Below the pieces are notes generated by a model. The model did no database searches, was not told where the DNA came from, and saw nothing but the letters and a program-made list of their open reading frames with translations. Source: a virus (taxonomy: Duplodnaviria > Heunggongvirae > Uroviricota > Caudoviricetes). Taken from it: a stretch of DNA of 42,087 bases. Below, piece by piece: positions 6,590 through 27,462 of the stretch; positions within the stretch are counted from its first letter, which is position 1; every line of letters begins with the position of its first letter. The position numbers were made by a program, and so were the translations under genes. The stretch is from the IMG/VR virus record IMGVR_UViG_2565956712_000007; one strand, given 5' to 3'.

Positions 6590-6627
6590 TTGCAAAACGT
6601 GCTGGATAGCAAACAAATTATTTGATA

Positions 6628-6643
6628 CTGTATAAATATACAG
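6628..6643. promoter_or_regulatory. LexA (SOS) box CTGTATAAATATACAG
   Basis: CTGT-N8-ACAG with AT-rich centre, flanked tA...tt, 22 nt upstream of the ATG at 6665. Confidence 0.65.
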
Positions 6644-6664
6644 TTATTGCATGGAGAAGATAAG

Positions 6665-6922
6665 ATGCAGCAGTATCACTATCCACTGGAAGACGGATTT
6701 ACCGAAAGGATTCACACGCCGGGAGGCGTCAGGTCACTGGTGGAGGGATCGCACTTGATGAAATTACTCCGGGATCTCGATAAGGATGGATTTAATGTCG
6801 ATGGCCCACTTGCCGAACTGACTGCACTGATTAACTACGTCACCAGCTCACAGATGTCTATGCGGGATCTGCAAACACATCTCGACTATTGTGCCGAACA
6901 ATTACGAAAACAAACCCGGTAA
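6665..6922 (+). CDS. Small SOS-controlled protein (85 aa) carrying the antirepressor C-terminal module; candidate antirepressor
   Basis: GGAG RBS; C-terminal half aligns with the last 77 aa of both Ant proteins (LM.LL..L..DG..V.G..AELT...Y......RD.QTH..Y). Confidence 0.6.
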   Translation: MQQYHYPLEDGFTERIHTPGGVRSLVEGSHLMKLLRDLDKDGFNVDGPLAELTALINYVTSSQMSMRDLQTHLDYCAEQLRKQTR

Positions 6923-6945: not shown

Positions 6946-7673
6946 TATCGTTTCGCTTTGTGCTCATCCCAGCACGTTTTGCACCATGCCATTAAGCCGT
7001 CCGCATTTTGATTATTAGGGTAAAAGCTGGTTCGTTTTCTGCGGACATTACAAATTGGGCACCACTTCATATGGCGTGTATTCTTTGGGCCATCGAGACA
7101 CCTTGCACACCATTTAGTCAATCCATCTGGATTTTTTGACGATTTCCTGAATTTTTCATATGGAAGGTTTATTCTGCATCGCAAGCACTGCTTGCTACCA
7201 CTTGAAACTCTGTTAGCTGATTCTTCTTTTGGCGGCGATACAGAAGGTATTCTTGCTGGCTCTGATATTGCCTGAGGTGCTTTTTTAGATGACTGAGACG
7301 ATATGTCATCACCAGGGAATCTTCCATGATATGCCGGACGCGTTGACACTCCAGGTGGAATCTCAGCTGTAAACGGCTTTGGCTGAATCAGTTGCCTCTC
7401 TTTTGCTAACTCCTGCTGTTTATAATATGTCTGGATTACCGCACTATCATAAGCAGGAGGTGCGGAAATATTAGGCGCATTACCTCCAGTTTTTTGAAAC
7501 TGAGTAGAGGTGTGTTCTATCACCTGTGTACGATTAATCGTTATCTCCCCATCTTCGGTCTTTATCGTTTTGTTATGATTAACGACCGTACGATCAGAGA
7601 TCTTAGTCTTGTTCTGGTTGATAACGTAAATAATCACCGCAACCACACCAACAACTATCCAGAAAACTTCCAT
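6945..7673 (-). CDS. Membrane-anchored protein with duplicated Cys-rich (zinc-finger-like) C-terminal repeats; moron
   Basis: N-terminal TM helix; two C-x2-C ... W-C-x2-C repeats; operator-like site in its upstream region. Confidence 0.55.
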   Translation of the reverse strand: MEVFWIVVGVVAVIIYVINQNKTKISDRTVVNHNKTIKTEDGEITINRTQVIEHTSTQFQKTGGNAPNISAPPAYDSAVIQTYYKQQELAKERQLIQPKPFTAEIPPGVSTRPAYHGRFPGDDISSQSSKKAPQAISEPARIPSVSPPKEESANRVSSGSKQCLRCRINLPYEKFRKSSKNPDGLTKWCARCLDGPKNTRHMKWCPICNVRRKRTSFYPNNQNADGLMAWCKTCWDEHKAKR

Positions 7674-7692
7674 TGCTTTTCCTCACAATAAC

Positions 7693-7709
7693 ATTACCTT
7701 AAAGGTAAT
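7693..7709. promoter_or_regulatory. Operator-like site ATTACC-TTAAA-GGTAAT
   Basis: Perfect inverted half-sites. Confidence 0.6.
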
Positions 7710-7785
7710 ATCTTGCTTTCAGGTGATCAAGCGTTAAACGCAATCAACCAAATACGGTTGATTTTAATGTTTCTTCGCGCTTATC

Positions 7786-7802
7786 ATTACCTTTACGGTA
7801 AA
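7786..7802. promoter_or_regulatory. Operator-like site ATTACC-TTTAC-GGTAAA
   Basis: One mismatch to consensus; next to TTTACA -35-like hexamer. Confidence 0.5.
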
Positions 7803-7894
7803 TTTACATCGCACTCCTCTTGTGCCATAGTAATCGGGCACTGGCAAAATCCAGTGCCGGGATTGGCGTCCCGGATTACTACAGAGGCACATAT

Positions 7895-7915
7895 GCCGCA
7901 TAAGCGGTTTTTTTT
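7895..7915 (+). terminator. Intrinsic terminator in the ant leader
   Basis: Short GC stem GCCGC-ATAA-GCGG followed by T8. Confidence 0.5.
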
Positions 7916-8068
7916 ATGTGTAAAGCGCACCTATTCTATGGTGGGCTGTGTGGGGGCACCGAAAGGTGCGCCGGGTCCTTTGTAGCCGGTTACGCCAACC
8001 CTGCACAGTTCACCACCAACCGATTGGCGTCGGTAGTGGTGATTAACCTAACTACAAAGGTGATCACT

Positions 8069-8755
8069 ATGACTGCTAACGTAACCCCATCTGTTTTTCA
8101 TTTTGAATCAGAAGCAACCATTCGAGCCATTGTTATTGATGGAAATCCTTGGTTTGTTGCCAAAGACGTTATTAAAGCTCTTCAACTGACAAACCCCACT
8201 ATGTCAATAAAATCTCTTGATGATGATGAAAGGGCTAAATTTAACTTAGGCCGTCAAGGCGAAACCAATATTATCAACGAGTCAGGCCTCTACACACTGA
8301 TCCTCCGCTGCCGCGATGCGGTGACACCAGGCACTATCCCATACCGCTTTCGTAAATGGGTTACAGGTGAGGTTCTTCCTCAGATCCGCCGCACCGGAAG
8401 TTACATTAAAAACTCGCTCCCGCAAGAAGAACGCATAAAGATGGTTGCCGACCAGGTAGCCAACGCCACGGCGTCAGCAGTAATGCAGGCAATGAAGGTA
8501 GAGAACAAAACCTACAGCGCCCCACTGAAGCCCGGCTACCGCAGCCTGATTCATTCGCCGTCTGGTGTTCTCGGCCTGACAGAGAACTCACTGCTGATGA
8601 ATCTGCTGAACCAGTTACAGGACGACGGGCACGACGTATCGGGCGCGGCGGCGGAGCTGACCACCATGTTCTGCTACATCGTCGGTGTGAGCAAATGCCT
8701 GCGTGATATCCAGACCCACGCGGAGTACATCAACGACAAGGCAGGGTTCTTCTGA
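8069..8755 (+). CDS. Antirepressor, Bro-N-type N-terminal domain (Ant1)
   Basis: N-terminus FHFESEATIRAIVIDGNPWFVAKDV; RBS AAGGTGA; C-terminal 77 aa near-identical to Ant2. Track start 7916 is likely too far upstream. Confidence 0.8.
   Translation: MTANVTPSVFHFESEATIRAIVIDGNPWFVAKDVIKALQLTNPTMSIKSLDDDERAKFNLGRQGETNIINESGLYTLILRCRDAVTPGTIPYRFRKWVTGEVLPQIRRTGSYIKNSLPQEERIKMVADQVANATASAVMQAMKVENKTYSAPLKPGYRSLIHSPSGVLGLTENSLLMNLLNQLQDDGHDVSGAAAELTTMFCYIVGVSKCLRDIQTHAEYINDKAGFF
8522..8755 (+). repeat. Inverted repeat arm A (234 bp, about 96% identical to arm B)
   Basis: Encodes C-terminal 77 aa of Ant1; about 10 mismatches to the reverse complement of 9618..9851. Confidence 0.85.
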
Positions 8756-8825
8756 CGGCGGCGGCGCAGGGACGTGCCTTTAAATAATTCTGTACAGATT
8801 GCAGACTGGGGGTGAATAGCGTACT

Positions 8826-8842
8826 ATTACCTTAAAGGTAAA
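8826..8842. promoter_or_regulatory. Operator-like site ATTACC-TTAAA-GGTAAA
   Basis: One mismatch; directly upstream of an AAGGAGG RBS. Confidence 0.55.
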
Positions 8843-8853
8843 GGAGGCGCGAT

Positions 8854-9021
8854 ATGACAGCGTTGAAAAATCGTACTCAGCACAATGAACAAGCCAAGCA
8901 ATGCTGGGATGTCATTGGAAAAGTTATGCTTGGCCGCGCAAGCAAAGAGCGCGACAAGGATATGGTTTACCAGACAGGAACATCTTTCAGCGACTTCAAG
9001 GCGGCATTTCGCTCCAAATAG
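8854..9021 (+). CDS. Small protein (55 aa), hypothetical; first gene of cassette
   Basis: AAGGAGG RBS 6 nt before ATG; not in ORF track (under 60 aa); opposite-strand track ORF 8827..9027 has no RBS. Confidence 0.5.
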   Translation: MTALKNRTQHNEQAKQCWDVIGKVMLGRASKERDKDMVYQTGTSFSDFKAAFRSK

Positions 9022-9041
9022 AAGCACATTAGGAGTTTGTC

Positions 9042-9482
9042 TTGAAGTTTAACATTAGAATATCTAATAGTTTTCTAAATGGGGAAAGCAACACCCCTTT
9101 CGCTGTAGACGGACCTTTCCTTACTGACGATGAAATAAAAATCATACAAAGGTTTTTAGAAGATGTTGCCAATGGAAGGGCGCTTGTTGGAAAAAACAAG
9201 CCATCGTGGGTTAATGATAACCATGATAAAATTCCCGGCTCAGACAATTATGAGCAAGAGAATTATTGGCATTATCATTGTGGGCCAACATGGTATCCAA
9301 ACACATTTAAGAATTATACCATTAACTTAAATTTCAACCCTGGCGGAATGCATTCTAATGAATGCATTCATTATGCAAAAAATGATAATGAAATTGTCGT
9401 TGTTGGATTTTCAAGAGAACACATACCTTTCCTTTCATCAGATGGAAACGACAATCCGCTTTTTTATGATGAAGAAGAATAG
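9042..9482 (+). CDS. AT-rich hypothetical protein (146 aa, TTG start); moron, function unknown
   Basis: AGGAG RBS 6 nt before TTG; visibly AT-rich versus flanks; strong terminator after stop. Confidence 0.5.
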   Translation: MKFNIRISNSFLNGESNTPFAVDGPFLTDDEIKIIQRFLEDVANGRALVGKNKPSWVNDNHDKIPGSDNYEQENYWHYHCGPTWYPNTFKNYTINLNFNPGGMHSNECIHYAKNDNEIVVVGFSREHIPFLSSDGNDNPLFYDEEE

Positions 9483-9502
9483 CCCGCGGCGCGGGCTTTT
9501 TT
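9482..9502 (+). terminator. Intrinsic terminator GCCCGC-GGC-GCGGGC + T6
   Basis: Perfect GC stem then TTTTTT. Confidence 0.8.
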
Positions 9503-9540
9503 GTGTCTGCGGATTCCCACCCAGGCGGCGGTGGCATTCG

Positions 9541-9566
9541 TTAAAAACAAGGCCGCGAAAGCGGCC
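9541..9566 (-). terminator. Intrinsic terminator downstream of ant2
   Basis: GGCCGC-GAAA-GCGGCC hairpin followed by a U-run on the minus strand. Confidence 0.7.
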
Positions 9567-9567
9567 T

Positions 9568-9579
9568 GTGACATGTCAC
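9568..9579. repeat. 12-bp perfect palindrome GTGACATGTCAC (copy 1)
   Basis: Exact 12-mer, adjacent to the terminator hairpin. Confidence 0.9.
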
Positions 9580-9617
9580 GATAGTTCAGTTTTGCACATC
9601 CCTGTGCCGCCGTTCTG

Positions 9618-9851
9618 TCAGAAGAACCCTGCCTTGTCGTTGATGTACTCCGCGTGCGTCTGGATATCACGCAGGCATTTGCTCACACCAACGATGTAGC
9701 AGAACATGGTTGTCAGCTCCGCCGCCGCGCCCGATACATCATGCCCGTCTTCCTGTAACTGGTTCAGCAGATTCATCAGCAGTGAGTGCTCCGTCAGGCC
9801 GAGAACACCAGACGGAGAATGAATCAGGCTGCGGTAGCCGGGCTTCAGCGG
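9618..9851 (-). repeat. Inverted repeat arm B (234 bp)
   Basis: Encodes C-terminal 77 aa of Ant2; reverse complement matches 8522..8755. Confidence 0.85.
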
Positions 9852-10556
9852 ATAACCATAACATTTTGTCTGTGTTTTAATTGCCTCACGAAGCGCATCT
9901 AACATCTTGACTGCCACTTCATCATTCTCTGATGCAGATCCAGCAGGGAGATACTCCCCTTCAAGCGGAACCCGAGCAACAAGAGACAACGCTTCGGCGA
10001 ATTGATCTTCATCAATTTCTTTGTACGAACAGCCAAAATGAGATTTCAGTGACGACCACATGGTGATCATCGCCTTAGCCTGTTTTTCTTTTGGCAGAGA
10101 CTGACCGCGACTCATGACGAGTTGTTTAATGGCTTCCTGCTGTTCAGTGGTGATTTTACCCGGCAACGCCTTTTTAGCTTTGCGTGGGTTAACTACATGG
10201 CCTTTAGTCCAGTAATCGTAGAGCACATCGTCACACTCTTCCTGATACTGGATTACCTTGTCGCGGATTTCAGGGCGTACTTTGTTTGGACTGATGCTGT
10301 TCAACCAAGCTGCCAATTTTCGTAAAGCCATACAAATCATGGCTTGCACCCCACCGGCAGAAGGTATGGTGATTTCCACCATACCCTTCGAGAAGCGTTG
10401 AGAAATCTTCTTATGTTGAGATTTCCAGTCTAGCCCCATTCCCTCAACGATAGGTTTCATTGGGGTATACGGTTCACCGTTGTGATTGACAACATAAAGC
10501 TCTGCGCCGTGGAATGGCACGTTGATAGTAGATACCGCTGTTGCTATACTCGTCAT
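9618..10556 (-). CDS. Antirepressor, P22 Ant-type N-terminal domain (Ant2)
   Basis: N-terminus VPFHGAELYVVNHNGEPYTPMKPIVEGMGLDW; downstream of arc-like gene as in P22 immI. Confidence 0.8.
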   Translation of the reverse strand: MTSIATAVSTINVPFHGAELYVVNHNGEPYTPMKPIVEGMGLDWKSQHKKISQRFSKGMVEITIPSAGGVQAMICMALRKLAAWLNSISPNKVRPEIRDKVIQYQEECDDVLYDYWTKGHVVNPRKAKKALPGKITTEQQEAIKQLVMSRGQSLPKEKQAKAMITMWSSLKSHFGCSYKEIDEDQFAEALSLVARVPLEGEYLPAGSASENDEVAVKMLDALREAIKTQTKCYGYPLKPGYRSLIHSPSGVLGLTEHSLLMNLLNQLQEDGHDVSGAAAELTTMFCYIVGVSKCLRDIQTHAEYINDKAGFF

Positions 10557-10628
10557 GTCGTTAATTCCTATACGTAGTTTTACGATACTGAAGCCCTGAC
10601 GGTCTGGCCACCGTTGGGCTTCGCTGTT

Positions 10629-10796
10629 TTATGCCACGCTATTCTTCTCACCAGTGAGTCCATACACTTTCCTCAGCTGATAGATAATCTCTGTATTGAA
10701 CTTTCGGCATTCTTTTTCGCCATTTCTTTCAATAGCTAACTTCACATCGTCCGGAAAACGAACTCGTCGTTGACACATCTCTTTTGCTTTTTGCAT
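10629..10796 (-). CDS. Arc-like ribbon-helix-helix repressor (56 aa)
   Basis: RVRFPDDVKLAIERNGEK..FNTEIIYQL resembles P22 Arc; AAGGAG RBS 7 nt before the ATG at 10796. Confidence 0.7.
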   Translation of the reverse strand: MQKAKEMCQRRVRFPDDVKLAIERNGEKECRKFNTEIIYQLRKVYGLTGEKNSVA

Positions 10797-10810
10797 TTCA
10801 TATCTCCTTA

Positions 10811-10825
10811 GCCCCACGGTGGGGC
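10811..10825. promoter_or_regulatory. 15-bp palindrome GCCCCAC-G-GTGGGGC, candidate Arc/Mnt operator
   Basis: Perfect 7-bp arms; between divergent arc-like and mnt-like genes, beside a TTGACA hexamer on the minus strand. Confidence 0.5.
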
Positions 10826-10916
10826 AAAACAATTGTCACACCGTGCGTCATTGATGTCAAGCACACGGTGAGGCATACTTCAATCATTGCAAGTAACTCA
10901 ATATTTGGTGAAGAAC

Positions 10917-11348
10917 ATGAGCAGAGAAGATCCACAACTAAGGATCAGACTTCCCGTTGAAGTAAAAGAAAAAATAGAAATTTCTGCAAAAGCCAATAAG
11001 CGATCAATGAACGCTGAAATAGTACAACGTCTTGACACCAGCTTTCTGAAAGATATTCATGAAGATGACGTAATTTCTGCTTATGAAGCAAAAATTATTG
11101 CAAACAATGCACGGCATGAAATATCAAATATTATTTTCAAAAGAACCTTTAATGAAATTAATAAGAAAATAACACTTGGACATACAAGTTTTTATATAAA
11201 CCTTAATGACCTTGAACTGGAATCACTTGCAGATAATGATTACCAGATCATCTTTGAAAAAACATTTAATAAGCTCAATGAACTAGGTTACATCATCTGT
11301 GAAAACTCATGGGATGCAGATGGTTTTGGAATTGAAATACCTGAATAG
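10917..11348 (+). CDS. Mnt-like RHH repressor fused to an AT-rich C-terminal extension
   Basis: N-terminus DPQLRIRLPVEVKEKIEISAKANKRSMNAEIVQRL matches P22 Mnt; about 60 aa longer than Mnt. Confidence 0.65.
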   Translation: MSREDPQLRIRLPVEVKEKIEISAKANKRSMNAEIVQRLDTSFLKDIHEDDVISAYEAKIIANNARHEISNIIFKRTFNEINKKITLGHTSFYINLNDLELESLADNDYQIIFEKTFNKLNELGYIICENSWDADGFGIEIPE

Positions 11349-11390
11349 GAAGAACAAAAGGCGTGTACATATTACACGTCTTTAATACAA

Positions 11391-12002
11391 TTGAAAAACG
11401 CCACATTACTGATGTATGTTACAACAAGGAGCGATATTTTGAAAACCATATCTATATTAAAGGTTGCATTAGGCGTCGCTATTATTTTGACTCTCTCAAT
11501 ATTGTTTTATTTTTACCACAAAAAAAATGCTATTGCTCTTGATGGTCACGCGGCAAACTCATTTTTCTCAGAGTACATAGTGCCGCTATCAGGAAGCGGT
11601 ATAACAAATAAATATACTGACTATGACATCAAATATGGAATTGATGATGGGGAGACTATTGTATTACATGTAATCATTAAAAACCTAATGACAGTAAATA
11701 AAAATACAGACTTCAACGATAAAAATACAATACATCACAACAACAGCAAAACATTAATTTCTTATAGTAGCAACATCTATACGGATAAATACCTAAAATA
11801 CATCTCAGAAGATACAATAAAAGCAACCAGCGAAAAGTTAAAAAACATATATTGTGCATCCGGCAGTTTTCACAAATTATCGCCGCAGGAGCGTTTATTC
11901 TACGAAGCAAGAAAACAACGTAAGTCAATAATATTACATTATTATGCTGATTCAGGGGAGTCACTCATATTTAATATTGGGGTTTCCCCTGAATCATGCT
12001 AA
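11391..12002 (+). CDS. AT-rich membrane-anchored hypothetical protein; candidate superinfection-exclusion moron
   Basis: N-terminal TM helix (ILKVALGVAIILTLSILFYFY); between ejection-protein gene and mnt-like gene; start uncertain. Confidence 0.45.
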   Translation: MKNATLLMYVTTRSDILKTISILKVALGVAIILTLSILFYFYHKKNAIALDGHAANSFFSEYIVPLSGSGITNKYTDYDIKYGIDDGETIVLHVIIKNLMTVNKNTDFNDKNTIHHNNSKTLISYSSNIYTDKYLKYISEDTIKATSEKLKNIYCASGSFHKLSPQERLFYEARKQRKSIILHYYADSGESLIFNIGVSPESC

Positions 12003-27385: not shown

Positions 27386-27462
27386 GTGGCATTAGCTCAG
27401 TTGGACAGAGCAACCGCCTTCTAAGCGGTTGGTCGCAGGTTCGAATCCTGCATGCCACGCCA
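27386..27462 (+). tRNA. tRNA-Arg (anticodon UCU)
   Basis: Hand-folded cloverleaf: 7-bp acceptor GTGGCAT/ATGCCAC, D-stem GCTC/GAGC, anticodon stem ACCGC/GCGGT with loop CTTCTAA, T-arm GCAGG-TTCGAAT-CCTGC, discriminator G, encoded CCA. Confidence 0.85.

Follow-up and report, generated by a model that had tools for sequence, protein, structure and literature searches.

The window analyzed here is the whole 42,087-nucleotide (nt) stretch of IMG/VR virus record IMGVR_UViG_2565956712_000007, from a virus of the Caudoviricetes. Positions 9618-11383 of this window are predicted to be a complete immI switch of the P22 type, the secondary-immunity system also called an 'ant moron', composed of an antirepressor gene (ant) with a P22_AR_N domain, a sar antisense RNA, a 55-amino-acid (aa) Arc-like gene and a divergent gene for a 143-aa Mnt-like protein, hereafter long Mnt. 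The P22-type immI circuit is known; what differs here is the long Mnt, with an uncharacterized C-terminal tail, which is common in the prophages of gut bacteria. With modest confidence, we lean towards a reading in which this protein represses the switch through three operators (O1, O2 and O3) while its tail serves as an oligomerization module.

A first-pass annotation, made by a model from the sequence alone, had proposed an immI-like arc/mnt/ant island with divergent Arc-like and Mnt-like genes, both of the ribbon-helix-helix (RHH) family, and with ant downstream of arc. The three genes are arranged in this way, the Arc-like and Mnt-like open reading frames (ORFs) lying at 10629-10796 on the minus strand and 10917-11348 on the plus strand and ant at 9618-10556 on the minus strand, with a P22_AR_N match at an expectation value (E) of 2.5e-45. 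The proposal is strengthened further by the sar RNA and by O1 as the counterpart of the P22 mnt operator. The module adjoins the gene for a 1,004-aa internal-virion-protein; because P22-like phages keep a variable 'ant moron' beside their virion-internal-protein genes (PMC2629481), we counted this location for immI identity. The module is carried by a prophage of the epsilon15/phiV10-like kind that is close to Escherichia phage TL-2011b, with which the module-bearing region shares 96% identity. Of 5,426 complete E. coli genomes, 36 contain the same 800 base pairs (bp), in every case on the chromosome.

We gathered homologous loci from bacterial genomes (15 loci, from different genera) and from viral contigs (80 loci). 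The long-Mnt gene stands opposite an Arc-like gene of the 55-aa class in 94 of these 95 loci (15 of 15 from genomes and 79 of 80 viral) at a distance of 118-147 nt; in the window, the two start codons are 120 nt apart. The gene that follows the Arc-like gene is always an antirepressor, but its type differs among loci (P22_AR_N, Bro-N or KilA-N/ANT), and tail contexts of the podovirus-like, siphovirus-like and Mu-like kinds are all represented among the phages around these loci. As judged from this survey, the module is a conserved cassette in which the Arc-like partner and a predicted three-operator region are fixed and the Ant cargo and Mnt tails are exchangeable.

The three predicted operators lie between the divergent start codons (Table 1). 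All carry a CAC-S-GTG core, and their spacings are 24 and 25 bp. The first-pass annotation had picked out a perfect 15-bp palindrome, which is located at 10811-10825 (GCCCCACGGTGGGGC) and corresponds to O1, together with an inverted repeat given as CACCGTG-N21-CACGGTG. Both motifs of the repeat are present, at 10839-10845 and 10864-10870, but the spacer between them is 18 nt, not 21, and a third CACGGTG inside the 15-bp palindrome had been overlooked, so that the region holds three related sites rather than two palindromes. The layout of the control region is almost mirror-symmetric with respect to the two predicted promoters: O2 sits within the spacer of Pant, overlapping its -10 hexamer; O3 sits within the spacer of Pmnt, abutting its -10 hexamer with a gap of 0 nt, just upstream of the Pant -35; and O1 covers the start of Pant, at about +1 to +15. 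In our alignment, the -35 hexamers of the two promoters overlap on opposite strands as a conserved TTGAnGTCAA block. Both Pant hexamers are conserved across the 16 aligned loci, as is the TTGAnG...CATAAT pattern of Pmnt, whose -10 is CATAAT in most homologues and CATACT in the window.

A lone perfect palindrome of this size would be unremarkable, since the window holds 7 of the 7-1-7 form and shuffled sequences hold 2.8 ± 1.6. The window has 5 copies of the CACSGTG core where 4.85 would be expected, and three of the five fall inside 56 bp (P ~6e-5 under uniform placement). What settles that the predicted three-site arrangement exceeds chance is conservation. At least three sites are found in 78 of the 80 viral loci, which comprise 50 distinct intergenic sequences, and the three-site arrangement is found in all 15 genome loci. 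The distance between the centers of O2 and O3 is 25 bp in 16 of 16 aligned loci and in almost every one of the 50 distinct viral sequences, and that between O1 and O2 is 24-27 bp. The center of O3 precedes the mnt-like ATG by 47-52 nt in nearly every locus, the only outlier being viral locus L072, in which a single site was found. O1 is kept across the 50 distinct sequences, with variable outer bases and a free central base, the latter as expected for odd palindromes; O2 is nearly invariant; and O3 has the family consensus ACCCCAC-N-GTGGGGC.

Relatives of long Mnt in Acinetobacter, Rhizobium, beta-proteobacteria, Xenorhabdus and Serratia have the same N-terminus (MSREDPQL[RK][IV]R[LI]P) followed by unrelated C-termini (87-201 aa). 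Upstream of their genes are two to three palindromes with the CAC-S-GTG core, spaced by 23-34 bp (and by 49 bp between two Rhizobium sites), and such palindromes persist where the divergent partner is a non-RHH protein. Because these palindromes accompany the shared N-terminus despite the unrelated tails, the operator core appears to be tied to the Mnt-type N-terminus. These data suggest that the Mnt-like protein is able to bind all three sites in the window. The Arc-like protein may share the same core, since its predicted beta-strand (QRRVRFP) has the same Gln/Arg/Arg pattern as that of the Mnt-like protein (QLRIRLP). O2, whose flanks are distinct and nearly invariant, is the best candidate for an Arc-preferred site. 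An attempt to trace covariation between O2 and the Arc-like protein found too little variation among family members, in the N-termini as in the operators, and the distant loci L034 and L035 did not decide the matter.

The palindromes could instead be chiefly RNA structures, with O1 forming a hairpin in the 5' leader that affects arc/ant translation or stability and 11357-11383 forming a terminator; we regard this as very unlikely. O1 does fall within the predicted leader, immediately before the Shine-Dalgarno sequence, where it could form a 6-bp stem of -10.7 kcal/mol. This hairpin is, however, no more stable than those of shuffled sequences (z = -1.3; 18 of 200 shuffles fold as well or better), and in many loci the half-sites of O1 differ, which would mismatch the stem, with the CAC-N-GTG core retained. 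Further, O2 and O3 are upstream of both predicted start sites, and the P22 equivalent of O1 is a protein operator. The hairpin past the mnt-like stop codon folds well (z = -5.3). Its core, CGTGTA-CATAT-TACACG, is the 17-bp palindrome that the first-pass annotation had placed after the gene, and is located at 11362-11378, 14 nt past the stop. In a terminator scan, this hairpin was listed as terminator-like for the minus strand alone; read on the plus strand, its core stem is followed by no more than three U.

Long Mnt itself consists of an RHH domain that resembles P22 Mnt and a tail that does not. The Pfam family Arc matches residues 2-46 (E 1.1e-14), and the N-terminus MSREDPQLRIRLP is nearly invariant in the long-Mnt family. 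An hhalign comparison with P22 Mnt (probability 97%) gives 46% identity over residues 1-41 and ends there; past residue 41, hhalign detected no homology to the C-terminal coiled-coil tetramerization region of P22 Mnt (residues ~50-82). Beyond this point, we found only low-identity tblastn extensions and a PHROG 795 match that covers residues 1-84. Solved structures of Arc, Mnt and AmrZ likewise match the RHH part only (PDB 1mnt, E 2.4e-7 in a profile search). The extra stretch of roughly 60 aa noted in the first pass is borne out by the lengths of the two proteins, 143 aa for long Mnt and 83 aa for P22 Mnt, and so is its AT-richness, the guanine-plus-cytosine (GC) content being 0.38 for codons 1-43, 0.30 for the remainder and 0.48 for the window as a whole.

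The long form is that of a family. PHROG 1388, whose function is unassigned, matches the protein over its full length (positions 1-143 of 143, E 5.1e-72). More than 260 full-length homologues of 142-152 aa align at ~100% coverage, and the ORF is conserved end to end across many genera at 57-69% identity. Annotations of E. coli chromosomes include an identical protein, RefSeq WP_000085730.1 ('Arc family DNA-binding protein'), and 14 other viral contigs encode a 99-100% identical, full-length protein from an intact ORF. The fusion is thus not peculiar to this phage, given these homologues, PHROG 1388 and the presence of the RefSeq protein in 36 complete E. coli genomes.

We also weighed whether the 143-aa ORF might be an artefact, either of two genes joined by a frameshift or in the sense of an RHH antitoxin or partition-type protein unrelated to the control of ant, and consider this hardly credible. 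In its favor, TL-2011b (L001, NC_019445) annotates only a 113-aa 'hypothetical protein' at the mnt-like locus, and PHROGs 795 and 2685 are labeled 'partition protein ATPase'. The shorter annotation, however, is explained by a frameshift: in our alignment, TL-2011b has one extra G in codon 9, at about 7440-7450, which corresponds to window positions 10941-10943. The window ORF is therefore the intact form, as far as the sequences tell, and the TL-2011b record the odd one out, the extra G reflecting either an error of sequencing or a genuine mutation that inactivates the gene in an induced phage. With this G and the full-length family in hand, we rejected a frameshift or gene-fusion artefact. 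The first-pass annotation had named two findings that would undermine its proposal: the first, a frameshift, is contradicted; of the second, homologues with the same fusion and a known function, the homologues do exist, but without a known function. As for the label, it is also found on genuine mnt genes of P22-like phages in several RefSeq records. Because bona fide mnt genes bear it, we take it to be annotation carry-over, and on Mnt homologues it appears to be a propagated misannotation. Further, long Mnt has no conserved neighbor of the toxin or ParA-like kind across the surveyed loci, the gene downstream differing from locus to locus and often lying on the other strand. The identity of a type II RHH antitoxin was rejected because the operon has no conserved toxin and PADLOC gave no match; PADLOC and NCBIfam returned nothing useful for long Mnt, the Arc-like protein or the neighboring AT-rich genes. 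Our literature searches found no experimental work characterizing the long-Mnt form. Proteins of 145-225 aa with an Arc/Mnt domain are mentioned for Pf prophages in one genomic survey (PMC7549136).

The first-pass annotation had called for domain prediction of the C-terminal region. When residues 50-143 are modeled alone, the tail folds with a predicted local distance difference test (pLDDT) score of 92.3 and a predicted template modeling (pTM) score of 0.80, which indicates a real, compact domain. This domain has no known relative. In the AlphaFold2 model of the whole protein (pLDDT 81), the RHH domain is followed by a helix at residues 55-86 and a beta-alpha-beta-beta unit, the elements of the tail being this long helix, a strand, a helix at 106-123 and a beta-hairpin. 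An internal repeat within the tail (IIFKRTFNEINK at residues 71-82, encoded at 11127-11162, and IIFEKTFNKLNE at residues 110-121, encoded at 11244-11279) suggests that it arose by duplication of a helix-strand unit. An exhaustive HMMER search with the domain alone retrieved only 19 clusters among 1.84 billion representatives; in each full-length member recovered, the domain follows an RHH domain, except for one spurious repeat-protein match.

In 15 homologues, the two halves of the gene are equal in GC, so that there is no compositional seam, and on this ground we rejected a foreign, recently grafted C-terminus. In a Pluralibacter locus (L024), the three operators and the Arc-like gene are kept, but the Mnt encoded there is 87 aa long and ends in another tail; this locus and the relatives with other C-termini indicate that, on a longer timescale, the tail can be swapped as a module. 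Long Mnt occurs together with Ants of differing types, and the tail does not covary with them, which argues against Ant-specific binding by the tail. When the 46-residue N-terminus was used as the query of a word-indexed protein search, the matches were fragments only and gave no census of alternative C-termini. The tail is, on this comparative evidence, probably an old, widespread and exchangeable module and not a recent fusion. The 'foreign C-terminal domain' of the first-pass annotation survives in part: homology does end at residue 41, and what follows is a separately folded, swappable domain without a known relative, but no compositional seam marks it as foreign.

In P22 Mnt, the C-terminal coiled coil is required for tetramerization and operator binding. 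Given that the tail replaces this tetramerization helix, that the operators are palindromes with two half-sites, that the tail can be exchanged for short, apparently helical ones, and that it shows no covariation with Ant, the tail is most likely an oligomerization domain. The switch would then operate as follows. Two back-to-back promoters would drive expression of the Arc-like protein and then Ant (from Pant) and of the Mnt-like repressor (from Pmnt). In a lysogen, the Mnt-like protein would occupy the operators through its RHH N-terminus, shutting Pant so that no Ant is made, and would limit its own promoter through O3. Upon infection or derepression, Pant would fire and the Arc-like protein would exert negative feedback, probably at O2, with the sar antisense RNA blocking translation of ant; Ant, in turn, would inactivate the main phage repressor via its C-terminal domain, as homology to SPC32H-type Ant suggests. 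Residues ~50-143 would take the place of the short P22 Mnt tetramerization helix, joining RHH dimers into a tetramer or larger assembly, as cooperative binding to operators with two half-sites requires, and may also connect O1 with O3 across the 49 bp that separate them.

Several observations weigh against this reading. Structure comparisons gave no informative relative of residues 50-143 and so provide no link to known oligomerization domains. The O1-O3 spacing of 49-52 bp does not amount to whole helical turns, so that simple looping is not obviously favored. Pmnt was not reported by the consensus promoter scan, and its placement therefore rests on the conserved hexamers; the window's O3 is degenerate in its left half and its Pmnt -10 is weaker than the family consensus. 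A Pfam search gave no match for the Arc-like protein, whose assignment to the RHH family is thus weaker than that of the Mnt-like protein. Finally, polar residues of the tail (R76, T77, H89, D98, T116 and D133) are invariant or nearly so, and such residues might just as well belong to a site that binds a ligand or a partner.

This last point raises the possibility that the tail is an input domain, acting as a small-molecule sensor or as the place where a protein of the host or phage docks, and releases the Mnt-like protein from DNA, so that expression of the antirepressor, and with it induction, would respond to a cue other than DNA damage. The first-pass annotation had suggested a novel effector or sensor fusion; our searches found nothing in support of an effector or a sensor role, and we consider the input-domain alternative improbable. 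It would fit a tail that is an autonomous, confidently folded globule in which R76, T77, H89, D98 and D133 are invariant or nearly so, and RHH proteins with regulatory C-terminal domains exist, NikR being one. It would also fit a phage in which two other Ant paralogues are already placed under distinct inputs, a LexA box and C4/IsrK RNAs, as described below. The oligomerization reading remains the one that we favor.

Table 1. Positions of the elements of the immI-type module within the window
Feature	Positions	Strand	Basis
ant, antirepressor, 312 aa	9618..10556	-	Pfam P22_AR_N (N-terminal), E 2.5e-45
Psar-like promoter, TTGATA-17 nt-TATACT, extended TG	10522..10550	+	Promoter scan, 10/12 matches
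sar-type antisense RNA	10558..10625	+	Rfam RF00262, 45.2 bits (gathering score 43), full length 1-68
Arc-like RHH repressor gene, 55 aa, first in Pant operon	10629..10796	-	ORF from ATG at 10796
Operator O1 (predicted), GCCCCACGGTGGGGC, perfect 15-bp palindrome, center 10818	10811..10825	.	Sequence and position relative to P22
Pant promoter (predicted), -35 TTGACA 10860..10855, 17 nt, -10 GACAAT 10837..10832, TG extension	10832..10860	-	Promoter scan, 10/12
Operator O2 (predicted), TGTCACACCGTGCGTCA, center 10842	10834..10850	.	Conservation, position relative to P22
Pmnt promoter (predicted), -35 TTGATG 10851-10856, 17 nt, -10 CATACT 10874-10879	10851..10879	+	Conserved hexamers
Operator O3 (predicted), AGCACACGGTGAGGC, center 10867	10860..10874	.	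Conservation across loci
Long-Mnt residues 1-43, RHH DNA-binding domain	10917..11045	+	Pfam Arc, hhalign, solved structures
Long-Mnt residues 44-143 and stop, linker and compact alpha/beta domain	11046..11348	+	Predicted structure
Hairpin, possible weak terminator	11357..11383	+	Folding, -13.1 kcal/mol, z = -5.3

The ATG of the Arc-like gene is preceded by an AAGGAG ribosome-binding site 7 nt upstream, and a 67-aa ORF with a TTG start is a longer reading of the same frame. The protein matches PHROG 228, 'Arc-like repressor' (E 3.4e-5), and is 33% identical to P22 Arc by BLASTP (E 4e-5). The sar RNA is predicted to be complementary to the ribosome-binding region of ant. Its 3' end is a GAAGCCC...GGGCTTC hairpin followed by a T-run (-23.1 kcal/mol, z = -3.0), and the stretch aligns with the P22 sar region, including this hairpin and the TTGCTATACT -10 block, which is kept both in P22 and in the Enterobacter, Yersinia and Raoultella loci. 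The Psar-like promoter sits within the 5' end of ant and faces the opposite direction. No SOS (LexA) box was found in 10500-11400, and LexA control of this ant gene was ruled out on that basis.

Two further antirepressor genes lie outside the immI-type module. A perfect SOS box (TACTGTATAAATATACAGTTA) at 6626-6645 stands directly upstream of an 85-aa ORF (6665-6922) that is 87% identical to a gene of phage SPC32H annotated 'ant: anti-repressor protein'. Residues 233-308 of the immI-type Ant are 43% identical to the product of this ORF (E 1e-16), and by sequence the last ~76 aa of Ant share homology with the small Ant that LexA controls in phages of the SPC32H type; the immI-type Ant presumably targets the same kind of repressor because of this homology. 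Rfam places isrK at 7838-7914 and a C4 antisense RNA at 7934-8020, immediately upstream of a Bro-N antirepressor gene ending at 8755, and this isrK/C4/Bro-N stretch (7838-8755) looks like a second, RNA-controlled antirepressor unit in the style of P1 and Gifsy, convergent with the immI-type one. The Bro-N antirepressor and the immI-type Ant end in almost identical stretches of ~76 aa, and the 3' ends of the two convergent genes (about 8520-8755 and 9618-9855) form a long inverted repeat. The phage thus appears, from its gene content, to run three antirepressors that have a common C-terminal domain and three different controls. Given these three controls, a signal-sensing Mnt tail, though unproven, would be of interest. 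In the extended form of this idea, the tail is a ligand- or protein-binding signal domain, so that long Mnt and the LexA- and C4/IsrK-controlled Ants supply three independent triggers acting on one repressor through the shared Ant C-terminus, and the long-Mnt arm would be an SOS-independent route to induction common in prophages of the Enterobacterales. We offer this as a distinctly speculative proposal and think it doubtful.

The surrounding sequence includes other AT-rich genes. Downstream of mnt, in the place that sieA occupies in P22, is a gene (11439-12002, GC 0.33) for a 187-aa protein with an N-terminal membrane anchor that matches PHROG 8033 (unknown function); searches of defense systems with this protein gave no significant match, only a weak TIR-like one (E 0.005). 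Between the two convergent antirepressor genes is an ORF for 146 aa (9042-9482, GC 0.35; PHROG 5954); the TL-2011b gene that overlaps it is annotated as a YafO-family toxin, and Pfam and NCBIfam gave no match here. Five of the seven perfect 7-1-7 palindromes in the window (at 7181, 7694, 8827, 9482 and 10811) lie inside a 3.6-kb accessory region, 7181-10811. A tRNA gene at 27386-27459 on the plus strand (Rfam tRNA, 73.3 bits) may mark a prophage end or be phage-borne.

The immI region of P22 is a textbook circuit, and its repressors, Arc and Mnt, serve as models of how beta-sheets recognize DNA. The loci described here show that a common but unstudied version of this switch circulates as a cassette in podovirus-, siphovirus- and myovirus-like prophages across the Enterobacterales, and that its commonest Mnt tail is a well-folded domain without a known relative. 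If the tail only oligomerizes, it offers a tidy case of modular repressor evolution; if it receives a signal, it would constitute a new way to trigger prophage induction. There is also a practical gain, in that the TL-2011b annotation at the mnt-like gene is wrong, owing to a frameshift, and the 'partition protein ATPase' labels are misleading.

Comparison with known systems places the module as follows. The resemblance of long Mnt to NikR, an RHH protein with a C-terminal domain for regulation and tetramerization, is an analogy only: in both, an N-terminal RHH domain is followed by a globular alpha/beta domain, but the long-Mnt tail shows no fold or sequence relationship to NikR and no ACT-like ligand-binding domain. 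SPC32H is an epsilon15-like phage with a reported LexA-controlled antirepressor (Kim and Ryu 2013, as cited in PMC7380047). The window has an SPC32H-type small ant behind its SOS box; its immI-type Ant differs in having extra N-terminal domains and in its predicted control by Mnt, Arc and sar rather than LexA. With respect to PHROG 1388 and WP_000085730.1, the window protein is simply a member, with no difference.

The closest comparison is with P22. Long Mnt is similar to P22 Mnt (83 aa; PDB 1mnt is its N-terminal domain) in its 41 N-terminal residues and in its predicted role as maintenance repressor of Pant, and differs in that the coiled coil gives way to a longer helix and the beta-alpha-beta-beta unit, an unrelated tail of ~95 aa. 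In the same orientation, P22 immI reads arc start, AGGTCCACCGTGGACCT, ATAGTAGAGTGCTTCTATCAT, mnt start, where AGGTCCACCGTGGACCT is the mnt operator and ATAGTAGAGTGCTTCTATCAT the arc operator. The mnt operator and O1 have a common CCAC-S-GTGG core and both lie 22-23 nt from the arc start codon; the arc operator and O2 both lie in the Pant spacer. In both systems, mnt is divergent from arc-ant, both repressors are RHH proteins, and sar lies between arc and ant. Both also have an antirepressor with a P22_AR_N domain and a position near virion-internal-protein genes (PMC2629481). Set against this shared plan, P22 immI has two operators whereas the window has three predicted ones with one common core, the third in the Pmnt spacer; the strands of the window's Arc-like and Mnt-like proteins share the Gln/Arg/Arg pattern; and its Ant ends in an SPC32H-type domain, in a host phage that is epsilon15/phiV10-like and not P22-like.

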